Assembly (NCBI GenBank): GCA_026399875.1 | Contig: JAPLQF010000006.1 | Location: 9,549 to 73,548, forward strand | Reading direction: 5' to 3' | DNA from: Burkholderiales bacterium | GTDB taxonomy: Bacteria; Pseudomonadota; Gammaproteobacteria; Burkholderiales; Burkholderiaceae_E | DNA: 64,000 bases | Shown: in pieces, positions 25,724 through 53,287 of the stretch | How positions within the stretch are numbered: position 1 is the stretch's first letter | How the letters are laid out: each line of letters begins with the position of its first letter | Program-made: the position numbers and the translations under genes | Notes under the pieces: model-generated | What the model saw: only the letters and a program-made list of their open reading frames with translations | Told to the model about the DNA's origin: nothing | The model's database searches: none

Positions 25724-26575
25724 TCAGAAGATGCTTTCGCGAATGAAGATCAGGTCATCGGGGCGGATCGGGTCGTCAAGCCTGGGCTCGATGGCATCCA
25801 GTTTTCCATCGGACTTGCGGCGACTCACGCGCACCCCCTTGTCGGTTCCGCGAAGGGTCAGGCCGCCGCCCTTGGCGATTGCCTGAGCGACGGTCATGCC
25901 GCGATCGACGCCATACATCCCCGGGCGCTGGACCTGGCCATAGATGTAGTACTGAGGCGCGCGACTGACATAGATCACATCGCCTGCATGCATCTGCGGG
26001 TCTTTCGAGCGGTTGCCGGACGCAAACATGTCGACCATGTCGATCTCGATCCGAGTCTCGTTTCCATTGCGGGTGGTGACCAGCACCACTTCGTCGGCAC
26101 CGGCCGCGGTCACGCCTCCGGCCAGCGAGAGCACTTCGGACAAACGCATGCCGGTGGTTTCGAGCGGATATCGCCCTGGCCGGGTCACATTGCCCAGTAC
26201 CGAGACCTGCTGGCTGCGAAAGGTCGTGATGTTGACCGTCACCTGAGGGTTCTGCAGAAATTTGCCCTCGCGCAGTCGCTGCGCGATCAGCTTTTCAATA
26301 TCGGTGCTCGACATTCCACCGATACGAACCGGCCCGAGCAGCGGGTAAGAGATCACGCCGGCCTCGGACACCCGGGCGTCAACCGTCAGCTCGGGGCTCT
26401 GGAAAACCTGTATCCGAATCGCGTCGCCAGCCCCCAGAACATAATCGTCACGAGGCGCTTGCGCCTCAGCCTGCTGGGCACGGGCAGGCGGCGGGCCGAG
26501 CGTGGCCAGACAGCCCACGGCAAACAGCAGTGTGGTGAAGCCTCGAAGCAGACTGAGCTTTGCAGAGCGTGCCAT
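25724..26575 (-). CDS. periplasmic polysaccharide export protein (Wza-like Poly_export + SLBB, short form)
   Basis: Signal peptide, then YVLGAGDAIRIQVF..ELTVDARVSEAGVISYPLLGPVRIGG and SLBB-like repeats. Start taken at MARSAKLS. Confidence 0.8.
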   Translation of the reverse strand: MARSAKLSLLRGFTTLLFAVGCLATLGPPPARAQQAEAQAPRDDYVLGAGDAIRIQVFQSPELTVDARVSEAGVISYPLLGPVRIGGMSSTDIEKLIAQRLREGKFLQNPQVTVNITTFRSQQVSVLGNVTRPGRYPLETTGMRLSEVLSLAGGVTAAGADEVVLVTTRNGNETRIEIDMVDMFASGNRSKDPQMHAGDVIYVSRAPQYYIYGQVQRPGMYGVDRGMTVAQAIAKGGGLTLRGTDKGVRVSRRKSDGKLDAIEPRLDDPIRPDDLIFIRESIF

Positions 26576-26600
26576 CTTGATCCTCCTGATTCCTGATTGG

Positions 26601-27824
26601 TCAGAACGATGCCCGCACGCCGATGCCGAACCAGTTGTCGGTGTAGGCGTACTGGTCGTAATTCGAGGTGCGGTCGATGCGCGCGGCATCAGCAAACAGG
26701 AAGATCCGTCTTGCGACTTCGTAGCTCAGACGCAGCCCGACCTCATTGATGTTGTCCTTGCGCACCGGCGTGCCATCGAGGACGAAGCCCGGATCGCCCT
26801 TGTAGCTGCGAGTGGCGACCGCGAGCACCGCATCGACACTGGTGCGGGCGCCGACCTGCCAGGTCGGCCGAAGCGCGATGCCCATCGCGTCGATATAGTT
26901 GGCCGTCGGCAGCGTCGCACTGTCGATCGTGCGAAAAACCGCCGCGCGCATCGTGACCGCCCCCGACAGGGGCCACACGAAGTCCAGGCCGCCTGTGACG
27001 CCCGAGAAATCACGCTGCGACACGTTTTCATAGCTTCGGCGGGTGTAGCCGATACTGCCGCTGATGCGACTGACATCGGTCGGTCGATAGGTGACGCGCA
27101 TCAGCGCCGCGTCCTGACGATAGGCGTTGTCGACCGATGCCGGCAGCAGATTGCCATTCGAATCGTAAACCTGCTGATTCGGATAGCTGCCATTCTCGTG
27201 GCGCCAGACAAAGTCGATTTCGGTCGCGCTGCCGGCTGCGGCTCGTCGTACGCCGAACTCGGCGCCGACCCGGTTGAAGTCCGACGCTGCCTGTGACGCC
27301 AGCGAGTTGGTGCCGACCGCATTGTCCACCGCACCGATCAGGGCCCAGTTCTGCGTCATGCGAAAACCGAACAGCGCGCGCCCGAACTGGACATTCTGAA
27401 GGTTGTTCTGACCGCCGGTGATGGCATCGAACGGCGTCTGGAACTGGGCGAAGCGCGCGGTCAGTTCGCCGAACAGCGGCCGCCCGACCTCCCATGCCCA
27501 GGCACCGCCAGCGGTGTAGCCGAGATAGTCGTAGCTGCTGAAGTTGACGTACTTGACCGGCTCCAGGGTGGCATACGCGGTGATGCGCTGCAGACTGATA
27601 TCGCGCTCGAAGCGCAGACCGAGCAGCGCTCGCACAACCGTGTCGCCGGCACCATCGGCCACCCGAAAGATGTTGCTGTGATGCTCGACCGCAGCGGCCG
27701 CATTGATGCTGAAAATGTCTTCGACCGGGATCGGGGCCGAGACCGGCTGCGCCAGACCATTGACGGCCGGAGCAAGCATTGAAAGGGCTGCGCTGAGTCG
27801 CCGGATGGATGCAATCGTCATCAT
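26601..27824 (-). CDS. outer-membrane beta-barrel protein (PEP-CTERM-locus-associated type)
   Basis: Signal peptide MMTIASIRRLSAALSMLAPAVNGLA, alternating beta-strand pattern and a terminal ...GIGVRASF (C-terminal Phe). Adjacent to the exporter. Confidence 0.65.
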   Translation of the reverse strand: MMTIASIRRLSAALSMLAPAVNGLAQPVSAPIPVEDIFSINAAAAVEHHSNIFRVADGAGDTVVRALLGLRFERDISLQRITAYATLEPVKYVNFSSYDYLGYTAGGAWAWEVGRPLFGELTARFAQFQTPFDAITGGQNNLQNVQFGRALFGFRMTQNWALIGAVDNAVGTNSLASQAASDFNRVGAEFGVRRAAAGSATEIDFVWRHENGSYPNQQVYDSNGNLLPASVDNAYRQDAALMRVTYRPTDVSRISGSIGYTRRSYENVSQRDFSGVTGGLDFVWPLSGAVTMRAAVFRTIDSATLPTANYIDAMGIALRPTWQVGARTSVDAVLAVATRSYKGDPGFVLDGTPVRKDNINEVGLRLSYEVARRIFLFADAARIDRTSNYDQYAYTDNWFGIGVRASF

Positions 27825-28363
27825 GGTCCTGTGGCGAAGGCCCCGACGAACGCTGAACTGCTGGTGGCGATCGCCGAAGCGGCTGGTAGGCAGACCCAAG
27901 CTAGCAGCTTCGGGTGGACAGACCAATCGGCCGAATCGGTTGCTCCGGGGAAATGTAAGCGCTTATTCACATCGAAAATTGAAGGCAGCACGCCGCACGG
28001 TAGCGACCGGGCCGCCCCACCGGGATCCGCTCGGGTGCTGGCTGTCCCGCCGGGACGCCTGCCGCTCGGCCGGATGGCGCACAGCGCGACGCGATCAAGC
28101 AGAGCGGTATGGGTGCTGCCCGTCCGACGCGGTCAGGCTCTGTTGTGCCCCGCTCAAGTCAGCCCGGGCTCCCACGGCACGGAGGGCTCGAATCGACAGT
28201 CCGCAAGCGATGTTCAGCATTGCGGGACGATGCCCGATCGGCGCAAGCTGATGGCAAGGGCCATCGATGCGGCTGGCAAGCCGACCGGATGATGCGTCGA
28301 CAACTCAGAAACTTTCATCTGACCCCGATTTATTCAATAAATGGAGTCGATTGGGAGGATCAA

Positions 28364-30397: not shown

Positions 30398-30413
30398 GGC
30401 CCTGCTGCTCCGC

Positions 30414-31903: not shown

Positions 31904-32242
31904 TCAGGAAGGTCGGCGCGCCACGATCCAGGCAACGATCGCGAATCCGGCAAGCAGACCCGAACCCGAGGTCATCGCACCGGACGGTGCAGGAAACTCC
32001 GCACCGGGCGAACCCGCCGGGCGGGCCGGCAGCGGCGTCGCCACCGTCACTGCTTCGGCTGCGGCCGCGCTGACGACCGCCAGGACCGGATGCGGCATGA
32101 CCGACTGGGCGTCAGCCGCGGCCGTCATGAGAATCGTCGTGGTTCGCGGTGCAGACCCGGCATCGGCCAGGTCGCTCGCAGCGCCATGCGCCAACGGGCT
32201 CATCAGGGCAAACAGTACGGGCAGAGCAGGCAATCGCAGCAT
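31904..32242 (-). CDS. small secreted protein with PEP-CTERM-like C-terminal sorting signal (PAP variant)
   Basis: Signal peptide MLRLPALPVLFALMSPLAHG. The C-terminus FPAPSGAMTSGSGLLAGFAIVAWIVARRPS reads as a Pro motif, a TM helix and a basic cluster. Only the last 112 codons of the 322-aa ORF look coding. Confidence 0.4.
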   Translation of the reverse strand: MLRLPALPVLFALMSPLAHGAASDLADAGSAPRTTTILMTAAADAQSVMPHPVLAVVSAAAAEAVTVATPLPARPAGSPGAEFPAPSGAMTSGSGLLAGFAIVAWIVARRPS

Positions 32243-32428
32243 GACCGGTCCCCGGAAGTTCGATCGACACCCGCGTCGATCATGGTCAGGCAGACGCAAA
32301 CCGCGTGCCCGACCAGGCTGACCGGCCGATGTCGACCACTGCCCGCAGGTCGATGCAAAGCCTGCCGGGCACGCTCGTCGCATACCGGAAAAGCGTTGCA
32401 CTGACGACCCTGCGGAGGCTCGATTCTG

Positions 32429-33901: not shown

Positions 33902-34540
33902 TCAGCGGCCGGCGAGCAGCAGGCGCAGATCGGCGGTGATCTCGGGCACGGTCTGCGAAGAGCGGATATAGAGCCGCAGGCGCCCCTGATCGTCGAGCGC
34001 ATAGGAGGCTGCGGTGTGATCGAGGGAGTAGGCGCCAGGTGTCTTGCCCGGCACCTTCTGGAAGAAAACCTTGAACTCGCGGGCGGCTCGGGTCGTGGCC
34101 TCGGCATCACCGCGAAGCGCGATGAAGGTCGGATTGAAGGCAGTGACATAGGCACCGAGCATGGCAGCGCTGTCACGCTCGGGGTCGAGGGTCACAAGGA
34201 CCACCTGCACCCGGGCCGCGTCAGGGCCAAGCTCCTTCATGACCGCAGCCATGGCCGCGAGCGTCGTGGGGCAGACATCAGGACACTGGGTGAAGCCGAA
34301 AAACAGCACCACCACCTTGCCCTTGAAATCGGCCAGGGTGCGGGCCTGGCCATTCTGGTCGGTGAGCGAAAGCGATTTGCCGTAATCGGCGCCGGTGACA
34401 TCGGTCGAGAAGAAAGACGTCTTGTTGCTCGACCGGTCGCAGCCGGCAAGTCCGCCGACCAGACCAAGGAGCCCGAGTGTCAGCGCGAGAATGAATGCAG
34501 GCGCGGGCCTGGGCGACGCGCGGCCGGCCAGGGGCTTCAA
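33902..34540 (-). CDS. SCO1/SenC copper chaperone
   Basis: [15 protein letters not shown] and a lipoprotein-like LAGC. The start is uncertain. A TTG at 34540 overlaps the ctaB stop, and the longest ORF runs to 34639. Confidence 0.82.
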
Positions 34541-35427
34541 ACCCAGTGATCCAGCAAAAGGGCGGCAAACAGCGCCATCAGGTAGTAGATGGAGTAGCCG
34601 AAAGTGCGACGCGCCAGCGCATCGGAATAGCTGCGCCACAGTCGCCAGGCATAGCCGATGAAGATGCCACCAAGCACCGTGGCGCTGATCAGATAGAGCC
34701 AGCCGCTCATCCGGATCATGAAGGGCAGGAAGGTCGTGGCCACCAGCAGGACGGTATAGAGCAGGATCTGCAGGCGGGTAAACGGCAGCCCGTGCGTGAC
34801 CGGCAGCATCGGCAGACCGGCGCGCCGGTAATCCTCGACCCGGTAGAGCGCCAGCGCCCAGAAGTGCGGTGGCGTCCAGACGAAAATGATCAGAAAGAGC
34901 ACCAGCGCCTGCGGACCGACGTCATTGGCCACCGCTGCCCAGCCGAGCACAGGCGGCATCGCGCCGGAAGCACCGCCGATCACAATGTTCTGGGGCGTGG
35001 CCGGCTTGAGCACGATGGTGTAAATCAGGGCATAGCCGACGAAAGTTGCCAGCGTGAGCCACATGGTGAGCGGATTGACGAAGGCCAGCAGCAGCCAGGC
35101 GCCTGCGCCACCCAGCAAGGCGGCAAAGGCGAGCGCCCCCGAGACCGAGACTTCGCCCCGCGCCGCCGGGCGGGCCCGCGTGCGGGCCATGCGGGCATCG
35201 ATGCCGCGCTCGATCATGCAGTTGAAGGTAAACCCCGCGCCCGCCAGCAGCGAGATGCCGGCGATGCCGAACACCAGGATCCGCCAGGGCACGAGCTCAT
35301 CAGTGGCCAGCACCATGCCGATGACCGCGCAAAAAGCGGTCAGCATGACGATTCGCGGCTTGGTCAGCTCGATGTACTGACGCAGCGTATGGGCGAACGT
35401 TGGCGGAGAATGTTCGAGCAGGTCCAT
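34537..35427 (-). CDS. ctaB: protoheme IX farnesyltransferase (heme O synthase)
   Basis: UbiA-family [18 protein letters not shown] and polytopic. Positioned next to ctaA. Confidence 0.9.
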
Positions 35428-35446
35428 CGGGGGGAGGATTGGGCGA

Positions 35447-36457
35447 TCAGGCTCTGGCCGGAGCAGACCAAGCCGGTAAGGCTACCATGAGTAGCAGGCC
35501 CAGCAGTGCGGCCGCGCCGCCGGTATGCAGCACGGCGGCAGCCATCGGCCAGTCGAGAAAGATATTGGTCAGGCCGGTCACGACCTGCAGGGCCAGCACC
35601 GCCAGGATCAGATTGCCGATCGGCCGGCTCAGCTCCGAGCGGCGCAGCCGCAGCGCCAGCGCCCCCACCACGATGAAAACCACCCCGGCAAAGAGCCGGT
35701 GGACAAAGTGGATGGCGGTCAGCGCCTGAAACGGCAGGGCCTGGTCGTCGCCCTGATAACCCAGGCGGCGCCAGAGTTCGAAGCCGGCGCGAAAGTTCAT
35801 ATCGGGCCACAGGCTGCCCTGGCACAGCGGGAAATCGCGACACGCCAGGGTGGCGTAGTTGGTGCTGACCCATCCGCCGAGCGCGATCTGGCAAAGCAGC
35901 ACCGCCAGCGCGATCGTGACCAGCGGCCGAAATCCGGATGCCCCCGACATCGCCGTCAGGGCAGACGTGGCCGGTCTCACCCGCACCCACTGGGCGAGCA
36001 GCAGCCCGAACAGGATCATCCCGCCCAGCAGGTGCAGGGTGACCACCAGCGGCATGAGCTTGAGCGTGACGGTGAAGGCGCCGAATGCCCCCTGCAGGAT
36101 GATCCAGAAAAGCGTGAACCAGGCCAGCCGCGCGCTCGGGCCGGGAAGACGGCTGGCCATGATCGCCAGCAGGATCACCAGCACGCCCAGGCCGGCGGCG
36201 ATATAGCGATGCAGCATCTCGACCCAGGCCTTGAAGGCTGTCACCGGGCCATCGGGGCGCAGCGCGGTCTCGGCCCGAATCGAGTCGATTGCGCCGATCG
36301 GGGTGACCTTGCCGTAGCATCCCGGCCAGTCGGGGCAGCCCAGGCCGGCGTCGGTCACCCGCACGAAGGCGCCGAACATGATCAGGTCGAAGGTCAGAAA
36401 GACCGCAAAGAACAGCAGTCTTCTGAACAGCGTCATCGATATCAGCCGTGACCGCAT
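35447..36457 (-). CDS. ctaA: heme A synthase (COX15/CtaA)
   Basis: Eight-TM protein with conserved His-containing helices (HRYIAAG, HLLGG, HFVHRL, HTGGAA). Adjacent to ctaB. Confidence 0.85.
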
Positions 36458-36463
36458 GTGGCC

Positions 36464-37135: not shown

Positions 37136-37364
37136 CGGCCGGATTCTACGACGCGGCGCCCGCCGACAGATCGGATCTGCCATGTTTGAGCAGGGTCAAT
37201 AGCAAGGCTTGCGCCTTCGGCACCCTGAGGCTTCACGCCCGCAACGACACAGGACGCCGAACCATGGGGACAGCTTTCCTTCACCGAGCGGCCCGTGCGG
37301 ATCGAACAGACGGCTGGTCGCAGTCGTCGCTGCACCCGCCCGGACGCAGAGCGTTTCTGGCGAT

Positions 37365-37414
37365 CCCACTGCTCATCCCACTGCTCACCCCACTGCTCAT
37401 CCCGATGCTCATCC
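37365..37414. repeat. 12-bp tandem repeat x4 (CCCACTGCTCAT)
   Basis: Units at 37365, 37377, 37389 and 37401, with 1-2 mismatches. Intergenic. Confidence 0.9.
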
Positions 37415-37502
37415 GGCCTGTGCCGGCTGCGGGTGTGGCGGCATCGGCCGGACTGCGTCCGGTCGAGCGCGGGGGCTGGATCCTCGACGCATCGGATCGC
37501 TG

Positions 37503-38951
37503 ATGCTGGCCGAACAAATCTCCCGCGGCGCGCTCGCTTCACGCATCTTCGATGTCTGCCTGATCGGCGCCGGTCCGGCCGGCATCACGCTTGCCACCGA
37601 ACTCGGCGCACGCGGTCATTCGGTGCTGCTGCTCGAAGCCGGCGGGGCCAGTTATGAGGAAAGCTCTCAGGCGATGTATTCAGGCGAGGTGGTCGGTGCG
37701 CTGAAATTCGCGCTCGATACCAGCCGGCTGCGCTACCTGGGCGGCGCATCAAATCACTGGGGCGGCTTTTGCCAGGCGCTCGATGCGGTCGACTTCGAAT
37801 CGAAAGTCGCGGGCATCGATACCGAATGGCCGATCCGCCGGCGCCATCTCGATCCCTACCTCGAACGGGCCGAAGCCATCGTGGAGATCCCGGCCCTGCC
37901 CCCCGACCGGCCTTATGGCGAGCAACTGCGGCTGACCACCATGCGCTTTTCGCCGCCGGTCAATTTCGCGACGAAGTATCGCGCCACCCTCGAGAAGTTG
38001 CCGAACGTGGCGACCATCCTGCAGGCCTGCGTGGTGAACCTGAATGAGCAAGGTGGGGCGATCGTCTCGGTCGAGGTGACCGATCCGGACAACGGCCGTC
38101 ACACCGCAAGGGCAAGGCGCTTCGTGCTCTGCTCGGGTGGCATCGAGAACAGCCGCATGCTGCTGTGGGCCAATCATCTGAATGACGGGCGCGTCGTCAG
38201 GGATGCGCGCGCACTCGGTCGCTACTGGCTCGAGCATCCGCACTTCACGATCGGCGAGGCCTTTCTCGATGAACGCGCGCCCTTCGTCTACGACAAATGG
38301 TCGATCGCCTGGTCGAGCCCGACCGCGCAGGCGATGCGCGACAAACGCGCACTCAACGCCGGTCTGCGCCTGACCCGGCGCAATCGCGAGGCCTCGCGTC
38401 AGATGATCGCCGACCTGTCGTGTGTGGCACCCGAGCTCGGTCAGTGGGCAATGGCCAAGCTCAAGCGTCGGCTGTTTTGCGGCGCGATGCTGCGCGCTTC
38501 CTGGGAGCAGGCACCACGGGCCTGGAATCGCGTGGTGCTGTCGACCGATCGCGACCGTCACGGCACGCCGCGCGCCGAGCTGCACTGGCGGCTCGACGAC
38601 TTCGATCGTCACACCGTGGCATCGGCGGCCACGCTGCTGGCCGAAGAGATCCTGCGTCGCGGCGATGGCCGCGTGCGCCTGGACCCCTGGGTGCTCGGGC
38701 GCGGCAGCTTCCCGACCGATGACGAGATCAAGGGCAATCACCATATGGGCGGCACCCGCATGAGCTCATCGCCGGCCACCGGCGTGGTCAACGCCGACTG
38801 CAAGGTGCATGGCCTGTCGAATCTGTTTGTGGCCGGCTCGTCGGTCTTTCCGAGCAGCGGCGCCGCGAATCCGACGCTCACCATCGTGCAGCTCGCGCTG
38901 CGTCTGGCCGATCACCTGGGCGAGCGCGCCAGCGCGGCGTCGGTGCTCTGA
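37503..38951 (+). CDS. GMC-family FAD-dependent oxidoreductase
   Basis: FDVCLIGAGPAGITLATELGARGHSVLLLEAGG and C-terminal HHMGGTRMS..VHGLSNLFVAGSSVFPSSGAANPTLTIVQLALRL. Start taken at MLAEQISR. Confidence 0.85.
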   Translation: MLAEQISRGALASRIFDVCLIGAGPAGITLATELGARGHSVLLLEAGGASYEESSQAMYSGEVVGALKFALDTSRLRYLGGASNHWGGFCQALDAVDFESKVAGIDTEWPIRRRHLDPYLERAEAIVEIPALPPDRPYGEQLRLTTMRFSPPVNFATKYRATLEKLPNVATILQACVVNLNEQGGAIVSVEVTDPDNGRHTARARRFVLCSGGIENSRMLLWANHLNDGRVVRDARALGRYWLEHPHFTIGEAFLDERAPFVYDKWSIAWSSPTAQAMRDKRALNAGLRLTRRNREASRQMIADLSCVAPELGQWAMAKLKRRLFCGAMLRASWEQAPRAWNRVVLSTDRDRHGTPRAELHWRLDDFDRHTVASAATLLAEEILRRGDGRVRLDPWVLGRGSFPTDDEIKGNHHMGGTRMSSSPATGVVNADCKVHGLSNLFVAGSSVFPSSGAANPTLTIVQLALRLADHLGERASAASVL

Positions 38952-38952
38952 G

Positions 38953-40608
38953 ATGGCGGCGACGCATCCCCCTCATCCATCGCCGGCCAGTCCGGCGCCG
39001 ATCGATCGCGATCATCTCGACCACCATCACCTCGACCACCATCACCTCGAGCGCGATCAGCCAGGCGGATCGGGTCGGGTCGGGTCAGGACGATGGCGAC
39101 GACGGATCGCGATCGTCCTGGCCGTCATGCTGGCCGCCAGCCTGACGATCGCAGCATCCGCATGGCTGTGGGCGGTGAGCACCGGGCGCATCGGCGTCGA
39201 AGGCTGGCGCGAGCGGGCCTCGCCGGTCGAGCCCACCACAGTCCCGCTGATGGCGCTTCAAGCCCGGTTTGCGAGGGCAGACGGGCGAGTGGATGCCAGC
39301 GACTACGAGTTGCTGACCCGCTACTTCTTCGAAGGCTGGGCGGCCTACCGGACGCCCAAGGCCGAGCGCGCCCACTACCCCGGCCTGCCCAGCGGGTCGG
39401 GACGGCGCAGCGACGGCCTGGAGGGCTATGCGCGGATGTTCCCGCTGGCAGCCGCCTGGCTGGCCAGCGGCCGCGCGCCGCAGATCGAGACCGCCACCGG
39501 TCCGCTCGATCTGGCCGAGGTCTTCACACGCGGGCTTGTCACCGGGACCGATCCGGCCAGTCCCGACTACTGGGGCCCGATCACCGATTTCAGTCAGACG
39601 CTGGTCGAATCCGCCGATATCGCCCTGGGCCTGTGGCTCGCCCGCAAGGAGGTCTGGGCAAAGCTGAGCCCGGCCGAGCAGCAGCAGGTGGTGAGCTGGC
39701 TGATGCAGGCGCTCGGCAGTCAGCCTTACGACGGCAACTGGCAACTTTTTCCGATGCTGGTCCATCGGGCGCTGAATGCGCTTGGCGCCGACGCCTCGCG
39801 CTTCGATGCCCGGATGCAGACCAACTGGGAAATCTTTCGCAGCCTTTATCGCGGCCAGGGCTGGTTCAGCGATCCGCCGCATGGACTGGACGACTACAAC
39901 GCCTGGTCGGTCCACTACGCGCTCTTCTGGCTGCAGCGCATCGACCCCGGCTTCGAGCCGGCCTTCATCAGCCAGGCCCAGGGCGAGTTCGCGCGCTTTT
40001 ACGTCAAGCTTTTCGGGCCGCAAGGGCATCCGCAGAGGGGGCGAAGCAGTTGCTACAGGATGGCGACACCCGCCCCGCTGCTGGCCTCGCTGGCCACCGC
40101 TCCCGGCGCGATCACGCGCGGTCAGGCGATGCGCGCACTCGATCTGACCTGGTCGTGGTTCATCGGGCATGGCGCACTGGCCGCCGGCAGCGTCACCGCC
40201 GGCCTGTGCGGCGCCGATCCCGCCCTGCAGGCCAATTATTCGGGCCCGGCGAGTTGTCTGTGGTCGCTGCGACCGCTGGTGATGGTCTATATGCTTGACC
40301 GCGAACTCGGTCTGCTCGAGTCACCGCGTGAACCGCTGGCAGTCGAACGCGGTGATTTCGTGATCAGACATGAGACCACCGGCTGGACGATCAGCGGCAG
40401 AGCTGCCACCGGTGCGATCGACCTGTCGATCGAAGCCAATCCGCCGGGCGATGGGCCAGAAGACGGGCCGGTGCTCAAACCCTATGGGCTGAGCACGCAA
40501 CTGGCCGAGGCGCTGGTGCAGGCGCCCCGTCGGCCTGACAACACCGATGCGCTTTACCGGCGGCGGCACTACACCACCGACAAGCCGGTCGGGCGCTGCA
40601 CGCTGTAG
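38953..40608 (+). CDS. membrane-anchored hypothetical protein (possibly DUF2264-like)
   Basis: The ATG is 1 nt after the GMC stop. His-rich tail, one TM (IAIVLAVMLAASLTIAASAWLWAV), then a roughly 480-aa domain with YWGPITDFSQ and DGNWQLFPML. The family assignment is from memory only. Confidence 0.5.
   Translation: MAATHPPHPSPASPAPIDRDHLDHHHLDHHHLERDQPGGSGRVGSGRWRRRIAIVLAVMLAASLTIAASAWLWAVSTGRIGVEGWRERASPVEPTTVPLMALQARFARADGRVDASDYELLTRYFFEGWAAYRTPKAERAHYPGLPSGSGRRSDGLEGYARMFPLAAAWLASGRAPQIETATGPLDLAEVFTRGLVTGTDPASPDYWGPITDFSQTLVESADIALGLWLARKEVWAKLSPAEQQQVVSWLMQALGSQPYDGNWQLFPMLVHRALNALGADASRFDARMQTNWEIFRSLYRGQGWFSDPPHGLDDYNAWSVHYALFWLQRIDPGFEPAFISQAQGEFARFYVKLFGPQGHPQRGRSSCYRMATPAPLLASLATAPGAITRGQAMRALDLTWSWFIGHGALAAGSVTAGLCGADPALQANYSGPASCLWSLRPLVMVYMLDRELGLLESPREPLAVERGDFVIRHETTGWTISGRAATGAIDLSIEANPPGDGPEDGPVLKPYGLSTQLAEALVQAPRRPDNTDALYRRRHYTTDKPVGRCTL
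39016..39050. repeat. perfect 15-bp tandem duplication (CTCGACCACCATCAC x2 plus partial), encodes HLDHHHLDHHHLE
   Basis: Direct reading of 39016-39050. Confidence 0.9.
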
Positions 40609-40683: not shown

Positions 40684-40906
40684 CGCTTTGTGCGCGTTTT
40701 GACCGACCGCCCGTCCCCGGCACGGCCCCGCTGGTCGCCCCGACCCTTTTTCGCCTGACCCCCTCGGCTAGGTTTCGTGACGAAAGTCACAGACCTTGGG
40801 CTTTCTCAGGCCCGCACGCATCAAAGCCCCACACGGCAGCGATACCGGCGGAAAGCAGTCAGCGACGAGAACACCCTCGCCGCGCAAGAAACGATGGAAG
40901 CACGAC

Positions 40907-42058
40907 ATGCGACATTCCACCCTATCCAGCAGTTCTCACACAGGCAAGAAGCCTGCCCGCTCTTTGCCCAACCGCTTTCGCACGACCGTGACAGCAATCT
41001 CGATCGCCTCGGTGCTTGCAGCCTGCGGCGGCGCCAACCCGGCGCTCGATGCTCAGGTCGGCAGCGCAATATCGAACGCGGTGACATCGGCCGTCGGAAC
41101 GATCGCCACCGCAGTCGACACCGCAAATACCGCGAGCAAACCGGCTGGCATCACGTCGACGACGACAGTGGCCACCGGCACGACCTCGACGTCTGCCGGG
41201 ACACCCACCGCAACGCCGGAGGTGACGGCCAAGCCTGCCCCCGCCCCGACGCCTGCCCCCGCCCCGACGCCCGCCCCCGCGCCTGCCCCCGCGCCTTCCC
41301 CCACACCTGCCCCGGCGCCCGCACCGACGCCGGCACCAGCCCCGGTGGTGGTCAACGGCACGGTCAATTCGATCGACACCATCATCAACGACATGGCCTT
41401 GCCGCATGAGGGAACGCCAATTGCCTTCCCGGGCTGGGGAACCCTCAGTGGCCCCGGCCTGGACCTTGGCAACAACCCGCCTTCGGATTGGGGCTTCGGT
41501 CTTCCCTGGGGCGTGATCTTTATTCCCCGGGAAGGCAATCCGGCGGTCAATACCCGCGTCGAGATCCGCAACATGCGCTTTTACGTGCTCAGCAGGACCA
41601 CCAATCGGTGGACGCTGGCCGGCACCTCGCCCGGGGTTGACGGCTCGGACTACAACGAGGATTTCCGACAGGGCAACGATGTCCGCCCGGCCAATGTCCG
41701 CAATGAAGCCGGTGGCGGTGTCTCGGCCAAACCGACTTGGCCTTATTCCTATCACTTCTGGTGCTGCGGTCGCATGCCGATCGATCGCCCCAACCTCGGT
41801 GGCATTTTCGTGAGCTACCAGGTCAGGCTGATCGTCGATAACCCGAGTGTGCGCGACGACCGCGCAAGCGCGCGCTTTCTGGCCTACGGGGCACTCGACT
41901 ACTGGCGTGACCAGACTTCGCAATGGGCCCCCGGCCAGCCGCACAACGGGGAAGCTGGCCATGGCCGCATGAAGTACGTCACCAACAACTGGCAGGCGAT
42001 CAACATGACCACGGTACCGGCGGCCACACTTCGCGCCAATCCGCCGCCGATCGAATAA
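40907..42058 (+). CDS. lipoprotein of unknown function, paralog A (Pro/Ala/Thr linker plus conserved WCCG domain)
   Basis: Lipobox VLAAC, a (PAPAPT)n linker, then a roughly 235-aa domain homologous to the next gene (NSIDTIINDM, NTRVEIRNMRF, WTLAGTS, YHFWCCG, NPPPIE end). Confidence 0.7.
   Translation: MRHSTLSSSSHTGKKPARSLPNRFRTTVTAISIASVLAACGGANPALDAQVGSAISNAVTSAVGTIATAVDTANTASKPAGITSTTTVATGTTSTSAGTPTATPEVTAKPAPAPTPAPAPTPAPAPAPAPSPTPAPAPAPTPAPAPVVVNGTVNSIDTIINDMALPHEGTPIAFPGWGTLSGPGLDLGNNPPSDWGFGLPWGVIFIPREGNPAVNTRVEIRNMRFYVLSRTTNRWTLAGTSPGVDGSDYNEDFRQGNDVRPANVRNEAGGGVSAKPTWPYSYHFWCCGRMPIDRPNLGGIFVSYQVRLIVDNPSVRDDRASARFLAYGALDYWRDQTSQWAPGQPHNGEAGHGRMKYVTNNWQAINMTTVPAATLRANPPPIE
41231..41344. 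repeat. low-complexity GC-rich repeat encoding the (PAPAPT)n linker
   Basis: Reiterated GCCCCCGCCCCGACGCCT-like units inside the CDS. Confidence 0.85.
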
Positions 42059-42090
42059 GTCTTTCGACTGCGGCAGTCATGACTCTTTCA

Positions 42091-42117
42091 GGCCCGCCGC
42101 GTGCGGGCCTTTTTCTT
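42091..42117 (+). terminator. intrinsic terminator
   Basis: GGCCCGC-CGCGT-GCGGGCC hairpin followed by TTTTTCTT, 33 nt after the stop at 42058. Confidence 0.7.
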
Positions 42118-42144
42118 GCCGTACTCCGGTTCAAGGAGATCGGC

Positions 42145-43086
42145 ATGACACCTCTGTACAAGCTCATCAGACCTGCCCTGGGCATCGCCGGCGCAAGCCT
42201 GCTGCTGATGGCCGCCTGCCAGGCAAACCCTGACGACACCAGGCCGTCGTCGAAGACCAACTCAGACAAGGGCAATACCGGCTCGTCGCCGATCAATTCG
42301 ATCGAGACAGTGATCACCGACATGAGTCGGGTCAACGACATGGCGCTCGCCGGTGTGCCGAGCGGCCCGGGCTGGGCCACCGGACCCGGCCATGTGGTGA
42401 TGGGCAACGATCCGCGCGGCAGCCGCACCCCCGACTGGTGGACACCGGCCAACCGCCGCTACAAGAGCAAGGACTACTGGACGACGGTTCTGCCCTGGTT
42501 CGTGGTGTTCGATGGTGTGGGGCACGACGCCTCGAACACGCGGGTGCAGATTCGCAACCTCAGGGTGTTCGTCAAGCGCCGCTCCGATGGTCAGTGGACG
42601 CTGGTGGGCTCGAGCGTGCAGGTCAGCGGCGAGCTGTACCCGAAGCATCTGCAGGGCGACACCACCCGCAAGCCGGACGAACGCAGCGAGTCCGACGGCT
42701 CGACATCGGTCAAGGCGCCCGGCGGCAATCTCGCCTATCACGGCTGGTGCTGCGGCAAGCTCACGATCGATGCACCCGATGTCGCCGCGGTCTTCGTGAC
42801 CCTGCAAGCCAGGCTGATCCCCGATCGCAGCGAGCGACCCGATGACCGCCAGCAAGCCAGACTGCTGATCCAGATCGGTGCCGACTACTATCCCGACCGC
42901 AACACGCCGGTGTCGGCCTTCGCACCGGCGAGCTACAACCCGGGCGTGGGCGTCTCGCGCGCCAAACGGGTGACCGACACCTGGAGCGCCTTCAACTTCG
43001 CGACCATTGATGTCGGCGTGCAGGACCCGGGCGGCGCGGCAATCAGCGTCGCCGAGTTCAGATCTGCGCCCCCGCCGCTGGAGTAG
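42145..43086 (+). CDS. lipoprotein of unknown function, paralog B (WCCG domain)
   Basis: AAGGAGA RBS, lipobox LMAAC, NSIETVITDM, NTRVQIRNLRV, WTLVGSS, YHGWCCG and an APPPLE end. Confidence 0.7.
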   Translation: MTPLYKLIRPALGIAGASLLLMAACQANPDDTRPSSKTNSDKGNTGSSPINSIETVITDMSRVNDMALAGVPSGPGWATGPGHVVMGNDPRGSRTPDWWTPANRRYKSKDYWTTVLPWFVVFDGVGHDASNTRVQIRNLRVFVKRRSDGQWTLVGSSVQVSGELYPKHLQGDTTRKPDERSESDGSTSVKAPGGNLAYHGWCCGKLTIDAPDVAAVFVTLQARLIPDRSERPDDRQQARLLIQIGADYYPDRNTPVSAFAPASYNPGVGVSRAKRVTDTWSAFNFATIDVGVQDPGGAAISVAEFRSAPPPLE

Positions 43087-48117: not shown

Positions 48118-49376
48118 GTCGGCGCGCCGATACCGGCCTGGCGTGACAGGACAGACAACGGCACGAGCGCCCGCAGTCGCGCCTCGACACCACGCGCCAG
48201 CACCTCATAGTCACGATGGGTCTTCACCCAGAGACGGCCGGCCTCGGCCTGCGCCTGCGCAGCCACCGGGTCGGACACCGTCGCGATGATCGCGTCGGCA
48301 AAGGCCCTGGCATCGAGCGCGACCACCCGCCCGCCACCGCTTTGCTCGACCACCCAGGCCTGATCCGGCTGATCGTTGCAGATCACCGGCAGGCCGCAGG
48401 CCAGATACTCGACCGCCTTGGTCGGCGAGCCGACCTCGGTGAGCGGGCTGCGCGGCACCGGCGACAGCCCGACCTGGGCGCGTTGCGCCAGCGCCAGCGC
48501 CTGATCAAAGGGCAGACGCCCGGTGAAGTGCACCCAGCGCGCCGCACCGGTCTCGACCGCATGGCGTTGCAGCCAGCCGCGGTCGCTCGGCTCGTCGGCC
48601 TCGCCGATCACCATCAGTCGAAACTCGGGCATGACCCGACCGACCAGCGCGGCGGCATCCACCATCACTTCCGGGCGCCGATAGCGATCGAGGGTGCCCA
48701 GATAGACCGCCACCGGATGGCCCTCAAGGGGCAGGGGCAACGACGACGCCGCAGGCGGAAGGGCGGCGGCATCGACGCCCATCGGCACCGCGCTCACCCG
48801 ATCGTGCCTGAGCGGCCCGCGACGCAGGGCCGCGGCCATGGCATCGGACTGCACAAAGACCCAATCGGCATGCGGCACGAGAAGGTGCTCGAGGCACAGT
48901 CGACCGATACTGCCGCGCAGCCACAGCCAGACACGCCTCGCCAGACCCACCGACCCGTCGCGACGGCCTGCCAGCCAGAGGTATTGCTCGGGCAAGGGAT
49001 AGGACATCCAGTAGCAAAAAGGGATGCGCGCGAGGCGTGCGGCCGCAAAGCCGACGATGCCCAGCACCGGCTTGTCGCGCACGATCAGCGCGTCATAGCC
49101 CCGGTTGCACAGCCGAAACAGCGACAACTGCTGCTGCAGATCGCCAAGGAGTCGGCGCAGGCGCGTGCGCGCCGGCCGCAGGAAGGCCTGGCCACCCGGC
49201 CAGTCGGGTGGCGTGAGGCAATCGTTCGGCGTCTCGGCGAGGGCGAGCAGATCGACCTGCACGCCGAGCGCCGGCAGCGCTTGTCCGAACAGCACGCGAA
49301 CATCAGGCCGAGCGCAGGGATGCGTCTCGGCAGTCGCCAGCAGAATGCGCAGGCTCGGGGCCATGGTCGAGCTCAT
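48114..49376 (-). CDS. GT-B glycosyltransferase
   Basis: LRILLATAETHP at the N-terminus and C-terminal GLSPVPRSPLTEVGSPTKAVEYLACGLPVICND. The start MSSTMAPS overlaps the Wzy stop (ATGA). Confidence 0.72.
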   Translation of the reverse strand: MSSTMAPSLRILLATAETHPCARPDVRVLFGQALPALGVQVDLLALAETPNDCLTPPDWPGGQAFLRPARTRLRRLLGDLQQQLSLFRLCNRGYDALIVRDKPVLGIVGFAAARLARIPFCYWMSYPLPEQYLWLAGRRDGSVGLARRVWLWLRGSIGRLCLEHLLVPHADWVFVQSDAMAAALRRGPLRHDRVSAVPMGVDAAALPPAASSLPLPLEGHPVAVYLGTLDRYRRPEVMVDAAALVGRVMPEFRLMVIGEADEPSDRGWLQRHAVETGAARWVHFTGRLPFDQALALAQRAQVGLSPVPRSPLTEVGSPTKAVEYLACGLPVICNDQPDQAWVVEQSGGGRVVALDARAFADAIIATVSDPVAAQAQAEAGRLWVKTHRDYEVLARGVEARLRALVPLSVLSRQAGIGAPT

Positions 49377-50881
49377 GCGGCGGCCTTGCCTTGGCCGGCG
49401 CGCCATCGCCAGGCAATCAGACCAAGGGTGAAGGCCACCAGCACCTGCAGGCTGGGCGCGATCAGCATGACATCGAGCGCCAGCACCGCCGGCACGGTCA
49501 TCACGATCACCGCGCGAAGAGTGCGGCACATCGCCCGATCCAGGCCCGGCGCAGCCTTGGCCGCCAGTTGCCCCGCCGCCCTGAACGCGGCACCCAGCAT
49601 CAGCAGGTAGAGGGCTAAGCCGAAAAGACCGACATCCCAGAGCAGACCGGCAAAGGCGGTCAGACCGATCGAATAGCCCGGATACTTGCGATCGACATGA
49701 CCGAACTGCTCGGTGCCGCGCGAGCCGTGCGAGGCGCCCAGACCATGCCCGAAGACGGTAGCGATCGGGTCGTCCAGGCCATGGCGGCTCCACCAGAAGG
49801 GCACGACATTGCTGCGGTTCAGGCTCGCACCACCAAAGTAGCCGCGGTTGCCGACGTTGTAGTCGAGGTTCTCCCTGACCCGCTGCTCGAAGGTCATCTC
49901 GGTGCGGCCTTCGGTCGCCTGGTACTGAATATAGAAAACCATCAGACCGGCGATCAGCACCGAGGCCACTACCGCGCCGGATGCAAAGGCAAACGGCCGA
50001 CGCCGGGCCAGATCGGCATAGACCACCGCCAGCGCGACCGGCAGAAACACCGCCACCATCTTGGTTTCGCCCAAGGCCAGCGGTGCCGCGACGACCGCCA
50101 GCAGCGGCCAGAAATAGCGCGCCGCAATGATCGATTCCCGCCTTGCGGCCAGCAGGCCGGCAATCGCCGCGACCAGCAGGAACACCATGACATTGTTGTT
50201 GGCACCGCCGAAGATCGACCCCTCGAAGGTGCCGGTGACAATATCAACCGGCACGACCTGGTTGGGCATGTTCAGGCGCAGCGGCATCAGCACGATGCGC
50301 TGATAGAGCGCAAACGGCAGCTGGATCGCCGCCAGCCCGAGCATGAACAGCAGCCAGGTGCGAATCTGCTTTGGCGCGAAGGGCACTGTCGCCAGTGCAA
50401 ACATCAGACCCCAATACTGGAAATAGCGTTTGAAGGCCGCCATGACCTGGTCGCCCGGTGCATCGCTCAGCAGACTCATGCCGGTCGCATAGACCATGAA
50501 GAGCACGGCGATCGCCACGAATCCCGGACTCGACTGCCCCGGGGCATCGCGCCGCGTGCCTTGGTACAGCACCGAGGCCGCCAGCAGCAGAAAGCCGAGG
50601 ATCGAAAACAACCAGGGCAATCGCGCCAGCGCCGGAAAATGCATCACCAGCGGCCCGCACAGCACGAGGGTGCCAACCAGCACCAGCCAGACGGTCTGCT
50701 GGACGGCGGTCAGCAGCAGCACGCCGAAAATCGCGCCGACCGCAAGGCCGATCATCATCGGATTGCCCGAGGCCACCACCACACCGCCGATCACAGCCGC
50801 GGTGGCAAAGCCCGCACCGACCGCCAGCGGCATCAGCCGGTGAGCCGACAGGGCAGGATGTGATCGCAGCCAGTTGAGCAC
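49373..50881 (-). CDS. O-antigen ligase/polymerase-like membrane protein (Wzy)
   Basis: Polytopic with 10 or more TM segments and a large loop, typical of Wzy_C proteins. GTG start, which is uncertain. Confidence 0.65.
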   Translation of the reverse strand: MLNWLRSHPALSAHRLMPLAVGAGFATAAVIGGVVVASGNPMMIGLAVGAIFGVLLLTAVQQTVWLVLVGTLVLCGPLVMHFPALARLPWLFSILGFLLLAASVLYQGTRRDAPGQSSPGFVAIAVLFMVYATGMSLLSDAPGDQVMAAFKRYFQYWGLMFALATVPFAPKQIRTWLLFMLGLAAIQLPFALYQRIVLMPLRLNMPNQVVPVDIVTGTFEGSIFGGANNNVMVFLLVAAIAGLLAARRESIIAARYFWPLLAVVAAPLALGETKMVAVFLPVALAVVYADLARRRPFAFASGAVVASVLIAGLMVFYIQYQATEGRTEMTFEQRVRENLDYNVGNRGYFGGASLNRSNVVPFWWSRHGLDDPIATVFGHGLGASHGSRGTEQFGHVDRKYPGYSIGLTAFAGLLWDVGLFGLALYLLMLGAAFRAAGQLAAKAAPGLDRAMCRTLRAVIVMTVPAVLALDVMLIAPSLQVLVAFTLGLIAWRWRAGQGKAAA

Positions 50882-50919: not shown

Positions 50920-51804
50920 TCACAGCTCGTTCAGGGTGGTACCCAGGATGCGAATGCCCGAGTGGGTCATGATCGATGCGAGCTGCCCGATCTCCGAACT
51001 GCGGGTGCGTCCCTTGCGTCCCACCACGATCGCTGCGCCCGCACGCTGGGCGATCACATGCGCATCCGACGACTGCTGCGCCGAAGGAGTATCGATGAGG
51101 ATCACGTCGTAGGCGCTCGAGAGCTCATCAAGCAGCCGCGCGAATTCAGGACGACCAAGCAGCTCCTGCGGATTGGGCGGCTGAGGCCCGGCAGGCAGCA
51201 CCGACAGGCTGCCGATGCGCTCGATCGGCACGATCTCCTCGAGCCCTGCCCGATGGCTCAGGATGCCCGACAGGCCCATGCGGTTGGGCAGTCCGAAATT
51301 GAGGTGCTGGGTCGGCTGACGCAGATCGGCATCAATGATCAGTGTCCTTTCGCCCAGCTGCGCGAAGACCACCCCGAGATTGGCTGCGATGAAACTCTTG
51401 CCGTCGCCGCGATCGACGCTGATCAGCGCCAGCGATGTCTGCCCGGGCGTGCCGTCGAACCAGCGCATCATCAGCTGACTGCGAAGCGCCCGCAGTGCCT
51501 CGGCGAAGGGCGAGGTCGGATTGGACGCGGTCACGAGTTTCGAGGGCAGCTTGCTGTCGACCGACTCGATCGCGGTGTAGCCGAACTGCAGGGCAAGCGC
51601 GTCGTCGATATCCTTGCGGGCGACCAGCCCCAGACGCAGCGCAATCTCGCCGAAGCGATGGGCGGAGCTGCCCTGCTCGCTCAGGATGCCGGCCACCTGA
51701 GCCGCGGTGAGCCGACCCCTTGAAAACAGGATCTGCCCGATGCGCATGTCGGCCGCAAGCTTTCCGGCCTCTACAGCGACCGTGCTGGCGGGCATCGGAT
51801 TCAT
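50920..51804 (-). CDS. BY-kinase-like P-loop ATPase with N-terminal MshEN-like tandem motif, no C-terminal Tyr cluster
   Basis: Walker A SVDRGDGKSFIAANLG, A' LIIDADLRQP and B DVILIDTPS. The N-terminal RIGQILFSRGRLTAAQVAGILSEQ-GSSAH-RFGEIALRLGLVARKDIDDALALQ maps to 51586-51744. The start is uncertain (ATG at 51804 or 51795, TTG at 51870). Confidence 0.8.
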   Translation of the reverse strand: MNPMPASTVAVEAGKLAADMRIGQILFSRGRLTAAQVAGILSEQGSSAHRFGEIALRLGLVARKDIDDALALQFGYTAIESVDSKLPSKLVTASNPTSPFAEALRALRSQLMMRWFDGTPGQTSLALISVDRGDGKSFIAANLGVVFAQLGERTLIIDADLRQPTQHLNFGLPNRMGLSGILSHRAGLEEIVPIERIGSLSVLPAGPQPPNPQELLGRPEFARLLDELSSAYDVILIDTPSAQQSSDAHVIAQRAGAAIVVGRKGRTRSSEIGQLASIMTHSGIRILGTTLNEL

Positions 51805-51859
51805 TCTGTGCACCACACCGGTGTTGTTCACTGCGCGCCCCTCATGAGTAACGGATTGA

Positions 51860-53287
51860 TCAGTTGCCAAGGCGCAGCGTCGGCGGCAGACCGGCGCCGG
51901 GCCCGGAGGTGCCGATCAGTCGCTGCGCACGGCGGGTGGCGGCTTGCGGGACGACCGCGAGCACTGGCACGCCGCAGGCTGCAGTGAGATCGTCGGCAGT
52001 GCGAAGCGGCCGGTTCATCGACTCGAGCGTGAGCGCGGCCAGCACTGCCACGAATAGACCGAGCAGCCCGCCGATCAGCGCGTTGAGCATCGGCTGCGGA
52101 CGCGACGGCATGGTCGGCACCGAGGCTGGCGTCAGGATGCTGACATTGGACTGACGCGCCTGGCTCTCGAGGCTGGTCTCGGTAAAGCGCTGGGCCACCA
52201 GATCGAGCGCGCGCTGCGAGCCCTGCACCTCACGCTCGAGCACCTGCAGACGGTCGCGCGCCGACTTGATGCCGGCGACCTTGGCGCGCTGCGCTTCGAG
52301 CAGTCCGCGCAGCTCGGCCTCGCGGCGCAGATTGACATCGTTGCCGGCGGCGATGCTGCCGCCTACCCGCGCCATCTCGGTCTGCAGCCGCGCACGCAGC
52401 TGATCAAGCTCGGCCTGGGCCGCCTGATACTCGGGATGCGCCGGACCGAGCCGGGCAGCGAGTTGCTTCAGGCGCGCCTCGGCACGACCGAGATCACCGC
52501 TGAGCGTCTGCAGCAGCGGATTGGCCACCACCTCGGGCATCGAACCCGCACCGCGCTGCGCGGTCTGAGCGCGCGACCGGCTCTCGGCCAGCGCGGCCTG
52601 CACCATCACAAGTTGTGTCGACAGCTCATTCAGACGCGCATTCTCGACATCGAGACGCTCATCGTTGGCAAGGATGCCGCTGGCACGCTGCGCGGTCGAT
52701 ACCTTTTTCTGCGCTTCCTCGAGACGCTCGCGATAGTCCTTGCTCTGCGACTCGAACCAGAGTCTGAAATTGCGGGCCGGTTCTGTCTTGAGTTCGAGAC
52801 CGGTCTCGACATAAGCCCGGGCAAAGCCGTTGACGATCGCCGCAGTCAACGCCGGGTCGGTGCCCTCATAGGCGATCGTGAGCGTCGTGCCCTCACGCGA
52901 CGGATCGACCGCGAGCTTCTTGTCGAAATGCCGCTTGATGCGGCTTCGTAAAAGGCCGCCCTCGTCGCCGCCTTCGTCGTTGGCCACCGCGAGCATCACC
53001 GGATTGGCCTCCAGGCCGAGCGCGTCGATCACCCGGTTGACCACGCGCTCGCTGCGAATGATCTCGGCCTGGGTGACCAGATAGCCCTGGATGGTCTGGG
53101 GCATCATCACCGCGCCGCCCAGCACCGGGTCGGTTCCCTTGATCTCGAAGACCAGCGTGGTCGATGCCTGATATTTCTTGGTCAGCACCAGACTGACCGC
53201 AGTCGTGACCGCCAGCGTCATCAGAAAGATGATCGCGATGATCCCGAAACGGGCCTTGAGAATCCGCATGAACTGCTGCACGACCAT
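51860..53287 (-). CDS. chain-length determinant (Wzz/PCP) protein
   Basis: N-terminal TM (IIAIIFLMTLAVTTAVSLVL), a long coiled-coil periplasmic region and a C-terminal TM (LIGGLLGLFVAVLAALTL). Confidence 0.82.
   Translation of the reverse strand: MVVQQFMRILKARFGIIAIIFLMTLAVTTAVSLVLTKKYQASTTLVFEIKGTDPVLGGAVMMPQTIQGYLVTQAEIIRSERVVNRVIDALGLEANPVMLAVANDEGGDEGGLLRSRIKRHFDKKLAVDPSREGTTLTIAYEGTDPALTAAIVNGFARAYVETGLELKTEPARNFRLWFESQSKDYRERLEEAQKKVSTAQRASGILANDERLDVENARLNELSTQLVMVQAALAESRSRAQTAQRGAGSMPEVVANPLLQTLSGDLGRAEARLKQLAARLGPAHPEYQAAQAELDQLRARLQTEMARVGGSIAAGNDVNLRREAELRGLLEAQRAKVAGIKSARDRLQVLEREVQGSQRALDLVAQRFTETSLESQARQSNVSILTPASVPTMPSRPQPMLNALIGGLLGLFVAVLAALTLESMNRPLRTADDLTAACGVPVLAVVPQAATRRAQRLIGTSGPGAGLPPTLRLGN

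Follow-up and report, generated by a model that had tools for sequence, protein, structure and literature searches.

Polymerisation and export of polysaccharide by the Wzx/Wzy pathway are thought to be timed by the tyrosine phosphorylation and dephosphorylation of bacterial tyrosine kinases (BY-kinases). We analysed a 64,000-nucleotide stretch of an uncultured freshwater Burkholderiales bacterium (GenBank assembly GCA_026399875.1, contig JAPLQF010000006.1, positions 9,549 to 73,548; hereafter the window), which carries an exopolysaccharide (EPS) locus with an epsG gene. The gene product, EpsG, joins an N-terminal MshEN_N module to a BY-kinase-fold P-loop ATPase. Our best explanation, held with moderate confidence, is that the MshEN_N module, which is predicted to bind cyclic di-GMP (c-di-GMP), gates the EpsF/EpsG co-polymerase without tyrosine cycling.

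The binding data of Wang et al. 2016 show that in Vibrio cholerae MshE a 53-residue tandem motif binds one c-di-GMP, that both of its glycines are indispensable and that each hydrophobic residue is worth at least 10-fold in affinity. In the same data the isolated VcMshEN_N subdomain (residues 1-65) binds with a dissociation constant (KD) of 0.35 µM, so that the N subdomain alone suffices for binding. EpsG shares the tandem 24-residue motifs, the 5-residue spacer and the four-helix fold with MshE (5HTL) and with GSPII-B of Thermus thermophilus PilF (8PDK), and has the key Gly, Gln, Arg and hydrophobic positions, with an arginine replacing MshE I19. It differs from both in having the N subdomain only, without the MshEN_C/T2SSE_N1 half, and in carrying the sensor on a MinD/BY-kinase-type P-loop domain, whereas that of MshE and PilF sits on the hexameric ATPase of type II secretion or type IV pilus systems.

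The first-pass annotation of this DNA could not tell whether the fusion was already catalogued. It has been since 2016: the supplement of Wang et al. gives Methylobacillus EpsG (Mfla_2024/ABE50291) as MshEN_N with a non-T2SSE ATPase, aligns its residues 19-97, and places it in the first of two table columns with the proven binders MshE and NfrB, a column which we read as predicted binders. The TIGR03029 family model also includes the motif, and the gene is nothing new in kind. Our literature search, which covered few subscription papers, found no experimental test of EpsG with c-di-GMP and nothing on BY-kinases with c-di-GMP, MshEN with Wzc, or TIGR03029 beyond the 2016 supplement. EpsG of the Methylobacillus methanolan cluster (TIGR03029) has the same two parts in about 300 aa and follows directly after epsF, with EpsE and EpsL-type genes in the genome region, as here. 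The EpsG of the window (the query) is ~40% identical to Methylophilales members of the family (L040, L041). Its first motif copy is nearer to the MshE consensus (R1, V17, L21, Q24) than that of Mfla_2024 (T1, A17, M21, H24), and its clade keeps the Walker A lysine where most of the family has arginine. Unlike in Methylobacillus, no exosortase gene (EpsH/XrtB) was seen beside epsG, and the Eps genes lie in two blocks ~25 kb apart.

The kinase-fold part is 33-37% identical to those of Staphylococcus aureus CapA/CapB and Escherichia coli Wzc, which are polysaccharide co-polymerases (PCP) of types PCP-2b and PCP-2a, respectively, with template modelling (TM) scores of up to 0.85 when normalised to the target and with the Walker A, A', B and ExxRxxR motifs in common. 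EpsF and EpsG are split as are CapA and CapB, and the juxtamembrane tail of EpsF is similar; in contrast to CapB and Wzc, EpsG has the additional N-terminal module of c-di-GMP-sensor type, and no phosphatase gene was found nearby. EcpK of Myxococcus xanthus and HfsB of Caulobacter crescentus are BY pseudokinases that are proposed to act as phosphorylation-independent PCP-2 partners (PMC12004946). Like EpsG, they are stand-alone BY-kinase-fold partners of a kinase-less PCP-2 protein and lack a Tyr-rich tail, but they have neither Walker motifs nor MshEN_N, whereas EpsG keeps all of the Walker motifs. A precedent for direct control of exopolysaccharide by c-di-GMP through an MshEN-type module is E. 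coli NfrB, a c-di-GMP-activated glycosyltransferase with a C-terminal MshEN domain; it is an MshEN-gated EPS synthase (PMC8669469). The EpsG motif region gives weak NCBIfam cross-matches to the NfrB model; NfrB has a full MshEN on a synthase-type glycosyltransferase, while EpsG has the N subdomain on a Wzx/Wzy co-polymerase ATPase.

A tandem MshEN_N motif in EpsG

By its profile match the gene is an unexceptional EpsG, belonging to a known family of regulators of polysaccharide chain length. The 303-aa protein scores 313.8 bits against TIGR03029 (EpsG), a borderline pass exactly at the curated cutoff of 313.8, and the 316-aa open reading frame (ORF) scores 313.6 bits. Model positions 2-273/274 align to EpsG residues 28-301, the model itself opening with the tandem motif, and all 102 aligned relatives also match it. 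An exhaustive HMMER search returned 860 clusters (50% identity) at E<=1e-30; the best 150 of these and the query make up the 151 representatives to which the family counts below refer, and in almost every one of those 150 the alignment begins near residue 20-30 and runs to ~302, motif region included. The closest relatives, at 96-97% protein identity, come from freshwater metagenome-assembled genomes labelled uncultured Burkholderiales, and more distant ones from Lautropia, Limnobacter, Methylophilus and others.

The ORF at 50920..51870(-) was confirmed in the window, and its residues 43-95 correspond exactly to 51586-51744. The likelier start is GTG 51831 (303 aa) rather than TTG 51870 (316 aa): a Shine-Dalgarno sequence, GAGGGG, lies 6 nt upstream of the GTG, the query is matched over 100% of its length by homologues of 303-305 aa, and these share the N-terminus (M/V)xxTGVVHKMN, with residues 1-29 conserved. 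A start downstream of the motif, or of residue 72 as the first-pass annotation had considered, is rejected because every candidate (TTG 51870, GTG 51831, ATG 51804, ATG 51747) is upstream of motif 1 and the N-terminal residues are conserved. The features of the gene that carry the argument are as follows.

50920..51831, minus strand: epsG, 303-aa MshEN_N plus BY-kinase-fold P-loop ATPase; start GTG 51831, stop 50920-50922
51673..51744, minus strand: MshEN_N motif copy 1, RIGQILFSRGRLTAAQVAGILSEQ, residues 30-53, aligning to MshE R9-Q32
51658..51672, minus strand: spacer GSSAH, 5 residues, exactly 5 in 140/151 representatives
51586..51657, minus strand: MshEN_N motif copy 2, RFGEIALRLGLVARKDIDDALALQ, residues 59-82, aligning to MshE R38-Q61

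The order RIGQILFSRGRLTAAQVAGILSEQ-GSSAH-RFGEIALRLGLVARKDIDDALALQ, two 24-residue stretches with a spacer of exactly five residues, is read directly from the sequence, and R1, G3, G10, the hydrophobic residues at positions 12, 17 and 21 and Q24 are present in both copies, as had been annotated. The full 24-residue formula proposed with them holds at its core positions but is not literally fitted by either copy: the exceptions are F7 and R11 in copy 1, the latter at a position that calls for a hydrophobic residue (I19 in MshE), and F2 and A6 in copy 2. Tandem 24-residue motifs, the 5-residue spacer, Gly3, hydrophobic residues at 2, 17 and 21 and Gln24 are all found, and the single deviation is the Arg at motif-1 position 11. 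Across all six reading frames of the 64-kb window these two copies are the sole occurrences of the core pattern, and composition-preserving shuffles yielded a mean of 0.015 single matches and no tandem; the tandem motif is therefore real, far beyond chance. The relaxed regular expression of Wang et al., taken literally, misses copy 1 (R at position 11) and catches the tandem in just 7/120 close homologues, and alignment-based column counts were used instead. By these counts G3 and Q24 of motif 1 are conserved in 145 and 134 of the 151 representatives, and in motif 2 F2 is found in 146, G3 in 144, L21 in 138, Q24 in 143 and R1 in 91.

Residues 30-82 align end to end (1-53/53, E 2.4e-9, a score slightly under the curated cutoff) with NF053729, 'cyclic di-GMP-binding domain, MshE-related', which 99/102 EpsG relatives match at E<=1e-3. 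When the single N-terminal sequence was searched against the PDB, the significant matches were only to GSPII/MshEN domains (PilF 1.1e-8, PilB 2e-3, MshE 0.08). A family profile built from 45 EpsG-family N-termini matched PilF at E 6e-25 and V. cholerae MshE (5HTL) at E 3.8e-10, the latter in register (7-74 to 7-74). In this register MshE R9/R38 correspond to R30/R59 of EpsG, L10/L39 to I31/F60, G11/G40 to G32/G61, L25/L54 to V46/I75, L29/L58 to L50/L79 and Q32/Q61 to Q53/Q82, and EpsG thus keeps the residues at the positions that are critical according to Wang et al.

In the full-length AlphaFold2 model (mean predicted local distance difference test score, pLDDT, 91.8) the region forms four helices (31-37, 43-55, 60-66 and 72-82) at pLDDT ~96-98. 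When the N-domain was modelled in isolation its core had pLDDT 91-96, and its top 13 PDB neighbours were all GSPII/MshEN domains. This model superposes on c-di-GMP-bound MshE (5HTL_B) with a root-mean-square deviation (rmsd) of 0.8 Å over 55 columns at probability 1.00, and on c-di-GMP-bound PilF GSPII-B (8PDK) with 0.9 Å over 58 columns, so that the comparison with MshE-N proposed in the first-pass annotation came out in favour of its MshEN call; the small size of the domain leaves the Foldseek E-values weak (0.08-0.5). In these predicted models residues 30-82 are the four-helix MshEN_N subdomain only, with no MshEN_C half, and a linker of ~25 residues separates it from the kinase-fold domain. 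The MshEN call thus stands as a true homologue of the MshEN_N subdomain, on the NF053729 match, the profile match and the superposition alike, and falls for the full MshEN domain of PF05157.

A BY-kinase fold without a tyrosine tail, paired with EpsF

51481..51501, minus strand: ExxRxxR (EALRALR, residues 111-117), where the kinase-fold domain begins
51394..51420, minus strand: Walker A (SVDRGDGKS, residues 138-146)
51319..51342, minus strand: Walker A' (LIIDADLR, residues 164-171)
51082..51105, minus strand: Walker B (VILIDTPS, residues 243-250)
51860..53287, minus strand: epsF, membrane partner of EpsG and chain-length determinant (Wzz/GNVR) of PCP-2b type, TIGR03017

The rest of the protein had been described as a MinD/ParA-type BY-kinase core, and the GDGKS, DADLR and IDTPS motifs and the fold bear this out. 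In sequence searches residues ~100-303 match CapA/CapB chimeras at E 1.6e-37, and BceF, Etk, Wzc and VpsO as well. Foldseek aligned EpsG with CapAB (4JMP) at a TM score of 0.84 and an rmsd of 2.3 Å, and with Wzc (3LA6) at 1.6-3.8 Å across chains, 1.6-2.0 Å in most. The domain opens with ExxRxxR, the motif by which BY-kinases oligomerise into rings.

EpsG holds two tyrosines in total, Y85 and Y241 (303-aa numbering), and none in its last 62 residues, in agreement with the first-pass annotation; the chain ends ...GTTLNEL, exactly where the Tyr-rich tail of Wzc and CapB begins. Since this C-terminal cluster is missing, EpsG does not qualify by its sequence as a canonical autokinase, although databases call the family 'tyrosine kinase'. 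It has in common with BY pseudokinases the lack of a tyrosine tail and the stand-alone place beside a kinase-less PCP-2 protein, but the Walker catalytic motifs, which are absent from pseudokinases, are present in the query and in its 121 closest homologues.

The truncation is a family trait, the C-terminus lying within 5 residues of the query end in 138/151 representatives and the last 30 residues holding no more than one Tyr in 147/151. ExxRxxR is near-invariant (E111 in 140/151, R114 in 148/151, R117 in 149/151), as are most of the Walker A' and B residues (D167 147/151; D169 115/151, with N in 33; R171 143/151; D247 145/151). The Walker A lysine position, however, is R in 94, K in 23 and other in 34 of the 151, the last including C in 11, S in 6 and A in 6. 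As the lysine is mostly replaced while MshEN_N and ExxRxxR are conserved, the name 'tyrosine kinase' is doubtful for most EpsG members. In P-loop NTPases a change of this lysine to arginine usually keeps nucleotide binding and impairs hydrolysis.

The epsF product scores 459.9 bits against TIGR03017 (cutoff 422.75), and its stop codon lies 28 nt upstream of the epsG GTG. EpsG is thus encoded beside EpsF in an Eps-type operon and partners this split, PCP-2b-like co-polymerase from the cytoplasm; a Wzz/GNVR gene is also directly upstream of epsG in loci L044 and L046. In alignment the C-terminal segment of EpsF, RTADDLTAACGVPVLAVVP, resembles the CapA activator tail, KTEEDVESQLGLPILGSIQ, and is probably a CapA-activator-like segment. 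Four relatives of 749-847 aa (P0158, P0172, P0226 and P0233) combine Wzz, GNVR, MshEN_N and kinase-fold parts in a single chain, Wzz and/or GNVR being detected in each. They resemble Wzc-like PCP-2a proteins with a c-di-GMP-type module between the membrane part and the ATPase, and so fix the place of the sensor between these two parts.

Predicted gating by c-di-GMP and the alternatives

By homology with MshE, residues 30-82 of EpsG would bind c-di-GMP with sub-micromolar to micromolar affinity, and a regulatory consequence of binding would be expected. Binding would alter oligomerisation of the ATPase domains through the ExxRxxR ring interface, or their docking on the EpsF C-terminal tail RTADDLTAACGVPVLAVVP, and a high level of c-di-GMP would license polymerisation and export of repeat units. 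Because the tyrosine tail is missing, we propose that the cycle of assembly and disassembly would be driven by ligand and nucleotide binding, unlike the autophosphorylation in Wzc and CapB. Such a ligand-driven rather than phosphorylation-driven cycle fits the missing tail, the lack of a phosphatase found in the window and the exchange of lysine for arginine that is widespread in the family. It also agrees with the published concept of PCP-2 systems that work independently of phosphorylation (PMC12004946). Gating of EPS polymerisation by c-di-GMP in place of tyrosine phosphorylation cycling is therefore a plausible role for the module.

It is a more tentative proposal, which we consider possible rather than probable, that the whole EpsG family consists of c-di-GMP-gated, phosphorylation-independent PCP-2 partners in which binding at MshEN_N drives assembly and disassembly of the EpsF/EpsG ring. 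The family pattern, with sensor and ExxRxxR conserved, the tyrosine tail absent and the Walker A lysine mostly replaced, fits family-wide ligand control. If true, Wzx/Wzy polymerisation and export would be coupled directly to a second messenger, and the pattern would reflect an evolutionary change from covalent control to control by a ligand, in which the lysine-retaining clade and P0165, a relative described below, would be intermediates.

Several observations weigh against gating by c-di-GMP. R40 of EpsG, the sole notable deviation of the motif, sits at the position of MshE I19, and I19R is among the eight substitutions that Wang et al. 2016 list for the non-binding XpsE; EpsG is absent from the isothermal titration calorimetry table of that paper. 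This position is K/R in 110/151 representatives, and the arginine at motif-1 position 1 varies across the family, being found in just 34/151, though present in the query. The NF053729 score of EpsG, 36.9 bits, is slightly under the curated cutoff of 38, and the PF05157 search (full T2SSE_N) proposed in the first-pass annotation gave no match at E<=1 for EpsG or for 102/102 family members. No GGDEF motif, the mark of a diguanylate cyclase, was seen in any ORF of the window.

The strongest alternative is accordingly that the module at the N-terminus, a relative of GSPII/MshEN_N, has degenerated, has lost c-di-GMP binding and serves as a protein-protein or dimerisation module, for example by docking EpsF or another Eps protein. 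XpsE-N, which binds XpsL, and Xanthomonas PilB-N, which binds PilZ, are models for such a role, and the PilB-N/PilZ complexes 7LKM and 7LKO are among the structural neighbours of the module. We nevertheless consider loss of binding unlikely. The PF05157 miss reflects a two-half Pfam model, since EpsG has only the N subdomain while PF05157 models the N and C halves, and it is not taken as a refutation because the motif-specific model, the profile search against the PDB and the structure comparison all agree. The two glycines, which MshE cannot exchange without loss of binding, hardly vary among family members, and neither do the two glutamines and the hydrophobic triads; the spacer length is kept as listed above, and the best structural matches are ligand-bound forms at less than 1 Å rmsd. 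XpsE, moreover, departs from MshE at eight positions and EpsG at essentially one. Binding of c-di-GMP by EpsG is thus predicted from its homology to proven binders.

Somewhat less likely again is that EpsG is a conventional active tyrosine kinase whose activity c-di-GMP merely tunes, so that the phosphorylation cycle persists. Its targets would then be internal (Y85/Y241) or reached in trans, namely EpsF, a WcaJ-type priming transferase or UDP-glucose dehydrogenase; the last two belong to known classes of BY-kinase substrate and both are encoded in the window. In its favour, Walker A lysine, A' and B are intact and do not vary among the 121 closest homologues (K145 in 121/121), and CapB and Wzc, the nearest solved relatives, are active kinases. 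The kept lysine also counts against replacement of the phosphorylation cycle, since proteins of this clade may have retained kinase activity towards other substrates. One representative, P0165 (327 aa, 42% identical to the query), is the only one to combine MshEN_N, the Walker A lysine and a Tyr-rich tail, RALEAGQAYDSQYAHYSYSARE; c-di-GMP sensing and tyrosine phosphorylation can therefore occur side by side without either replacing the other, and P0165 may be an ancestral or intermediate form. An active kinase is at odds, however, with the loss of the Walker A lysine in most representatives while MshEN_N and ExxRxxR are conserved, from which phosphotransfer catalysis appears unlikely to be the shared function of the family. 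It also has to contend with the absence of the Tyr-rich tail, with the lack of Tyr in the EpsF C-terminal tail, and with the cognate phosphatase: the ORFs of the window that were scanned yielded no LMW-PTP, PHP or Wzb phosphatase, though one may lie elsewhere in the genome.

A fortuitous match, or a motif left untranslated because it sits 5' of the true start, as the improbable TTG 51870 start and an in-frame ATG directly before motif 1 (M42 of the 316-aa ORF) might suggest, is ruled out for practical purposes by the shuffles and the absence of the core pattern elsewhere in the six frames, by protein-level conservation of the region in 150 diverse cluster representatives, by the position of all candidate starts upstream of motif 1, and by the conserved N-terminus.

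Gating of the co-polymerase by c-di-GMP bears on a question raised by the work on EcpK and HfsB, namely what sets the timing in pathways that lack a kinase able to be phosphorylated. In the large EpsG family (the 860 clusters) a c-di-GMP sensor of predicted high affinity is joined to a kinase fold without the tail, and the family may be the most direct known link of c-di-GMP to a Wzx/Wzy co-polymerase. The query epsG is a clean candidate for a test because all of its key motif residues and all of its Walker motifs are intact, and the family-level statistics sharpen the hypothesis.

Neighbouring genes

49373..50881, minus strand: polytopic membrane protein of ~500 aa, encoded next after epsG, putative Wzy-like polymerase
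25724..26695, minus strand: epsE, outer-membrane polysaccharide export, TIGR03028 at 323.4 bits (cutoff 262.65), Pfam Poly_export and SLBB
26601..27926, minus strand: epsL-like outer-membrane beta-barrel, TIGR03014 at 264.4 bits, just under the cutoff of 275, Pfam BBP2_2

The locus is a Methylobacillus-type EpsE/EpsF/EpsG/EpsL exopolysaccharide gene set arranged in two blocks. In the epsF/epsG block, rmlBACD lie upstream of epsF, and beyond the ~500-aa gene downstream of epsG there are GT4 glycosyltransferases, a second protein with multiple transmembrane segments and an RmlD-like reductase. The ~500-aa protein at 49373..50881 gave no Pfam, NCBIfam or PDB sequence match; 'Wzy-like' is a guess from its position and topology, and it may belong to an unclassified Wzy-type family specific to such loci. 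The order Wzz/GNVR gene, epsG, ~500-aa gene is kept in other loci, where a gene of this size without a Pfam match is found at the same place (L044 10944-12443, L045 3045-4544, L046 10925-12448).

The second block, ~25 kb from epsG (25724-27926(-), 28384-29328(+) and 29369-33898), comprises EpsE, the EpsL-like barrel, UDP-glucose dehydrogenase, an epimerase and the WcaJ-type priming transferase, with rpoH interposed. Cytochrome oxidase assembly genes (CtaA, CtaB-like, 34537-36463) and others part it from the epsF/epsG block. Directly beside epsE and epsL are two tandem paralogues, 23014-24396(-) and 24309-25538(-), which are 41% identical over ~400 aa and have a short, weak EAL-like domain (ELL for EAL, DGFG for DDFG) followed by HDOD. 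Apart from epsG, no further c-di-GMP-related genes were seen in the window, and the two paralogues may be c-di-GMP phosphodiesterases or degenerate receptors tied to the same EPS system.

A DUF2264 protein/GMC oxidoreductase pair occupies 37209-40608. In stop-to-stop ORF translations, N-terminal peptide repeats, HPTAHPTAHPTAHPDAHP in 37209-38951(+) and DHLDHHHLDHHHLE in 38809-40608(+), precede the identifiable GMC-oxidoreductase and DUF2264 domains, translation of the repeats being putative. Between this pair and the glycosyltransferase block are the adjacent paralogues 40796-42058(+) and 41923-43086(+), 36% identical over 270 aa, with lipoprotein-like N-termini and, in the product of 40796-42058(+), a long (P/A/T)-rich linker (PAPAPTPAPAP...). 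Neither product has a meaningful Pfam match, and the two are possibly polysaccharide-modifying or -degrading enzymes.

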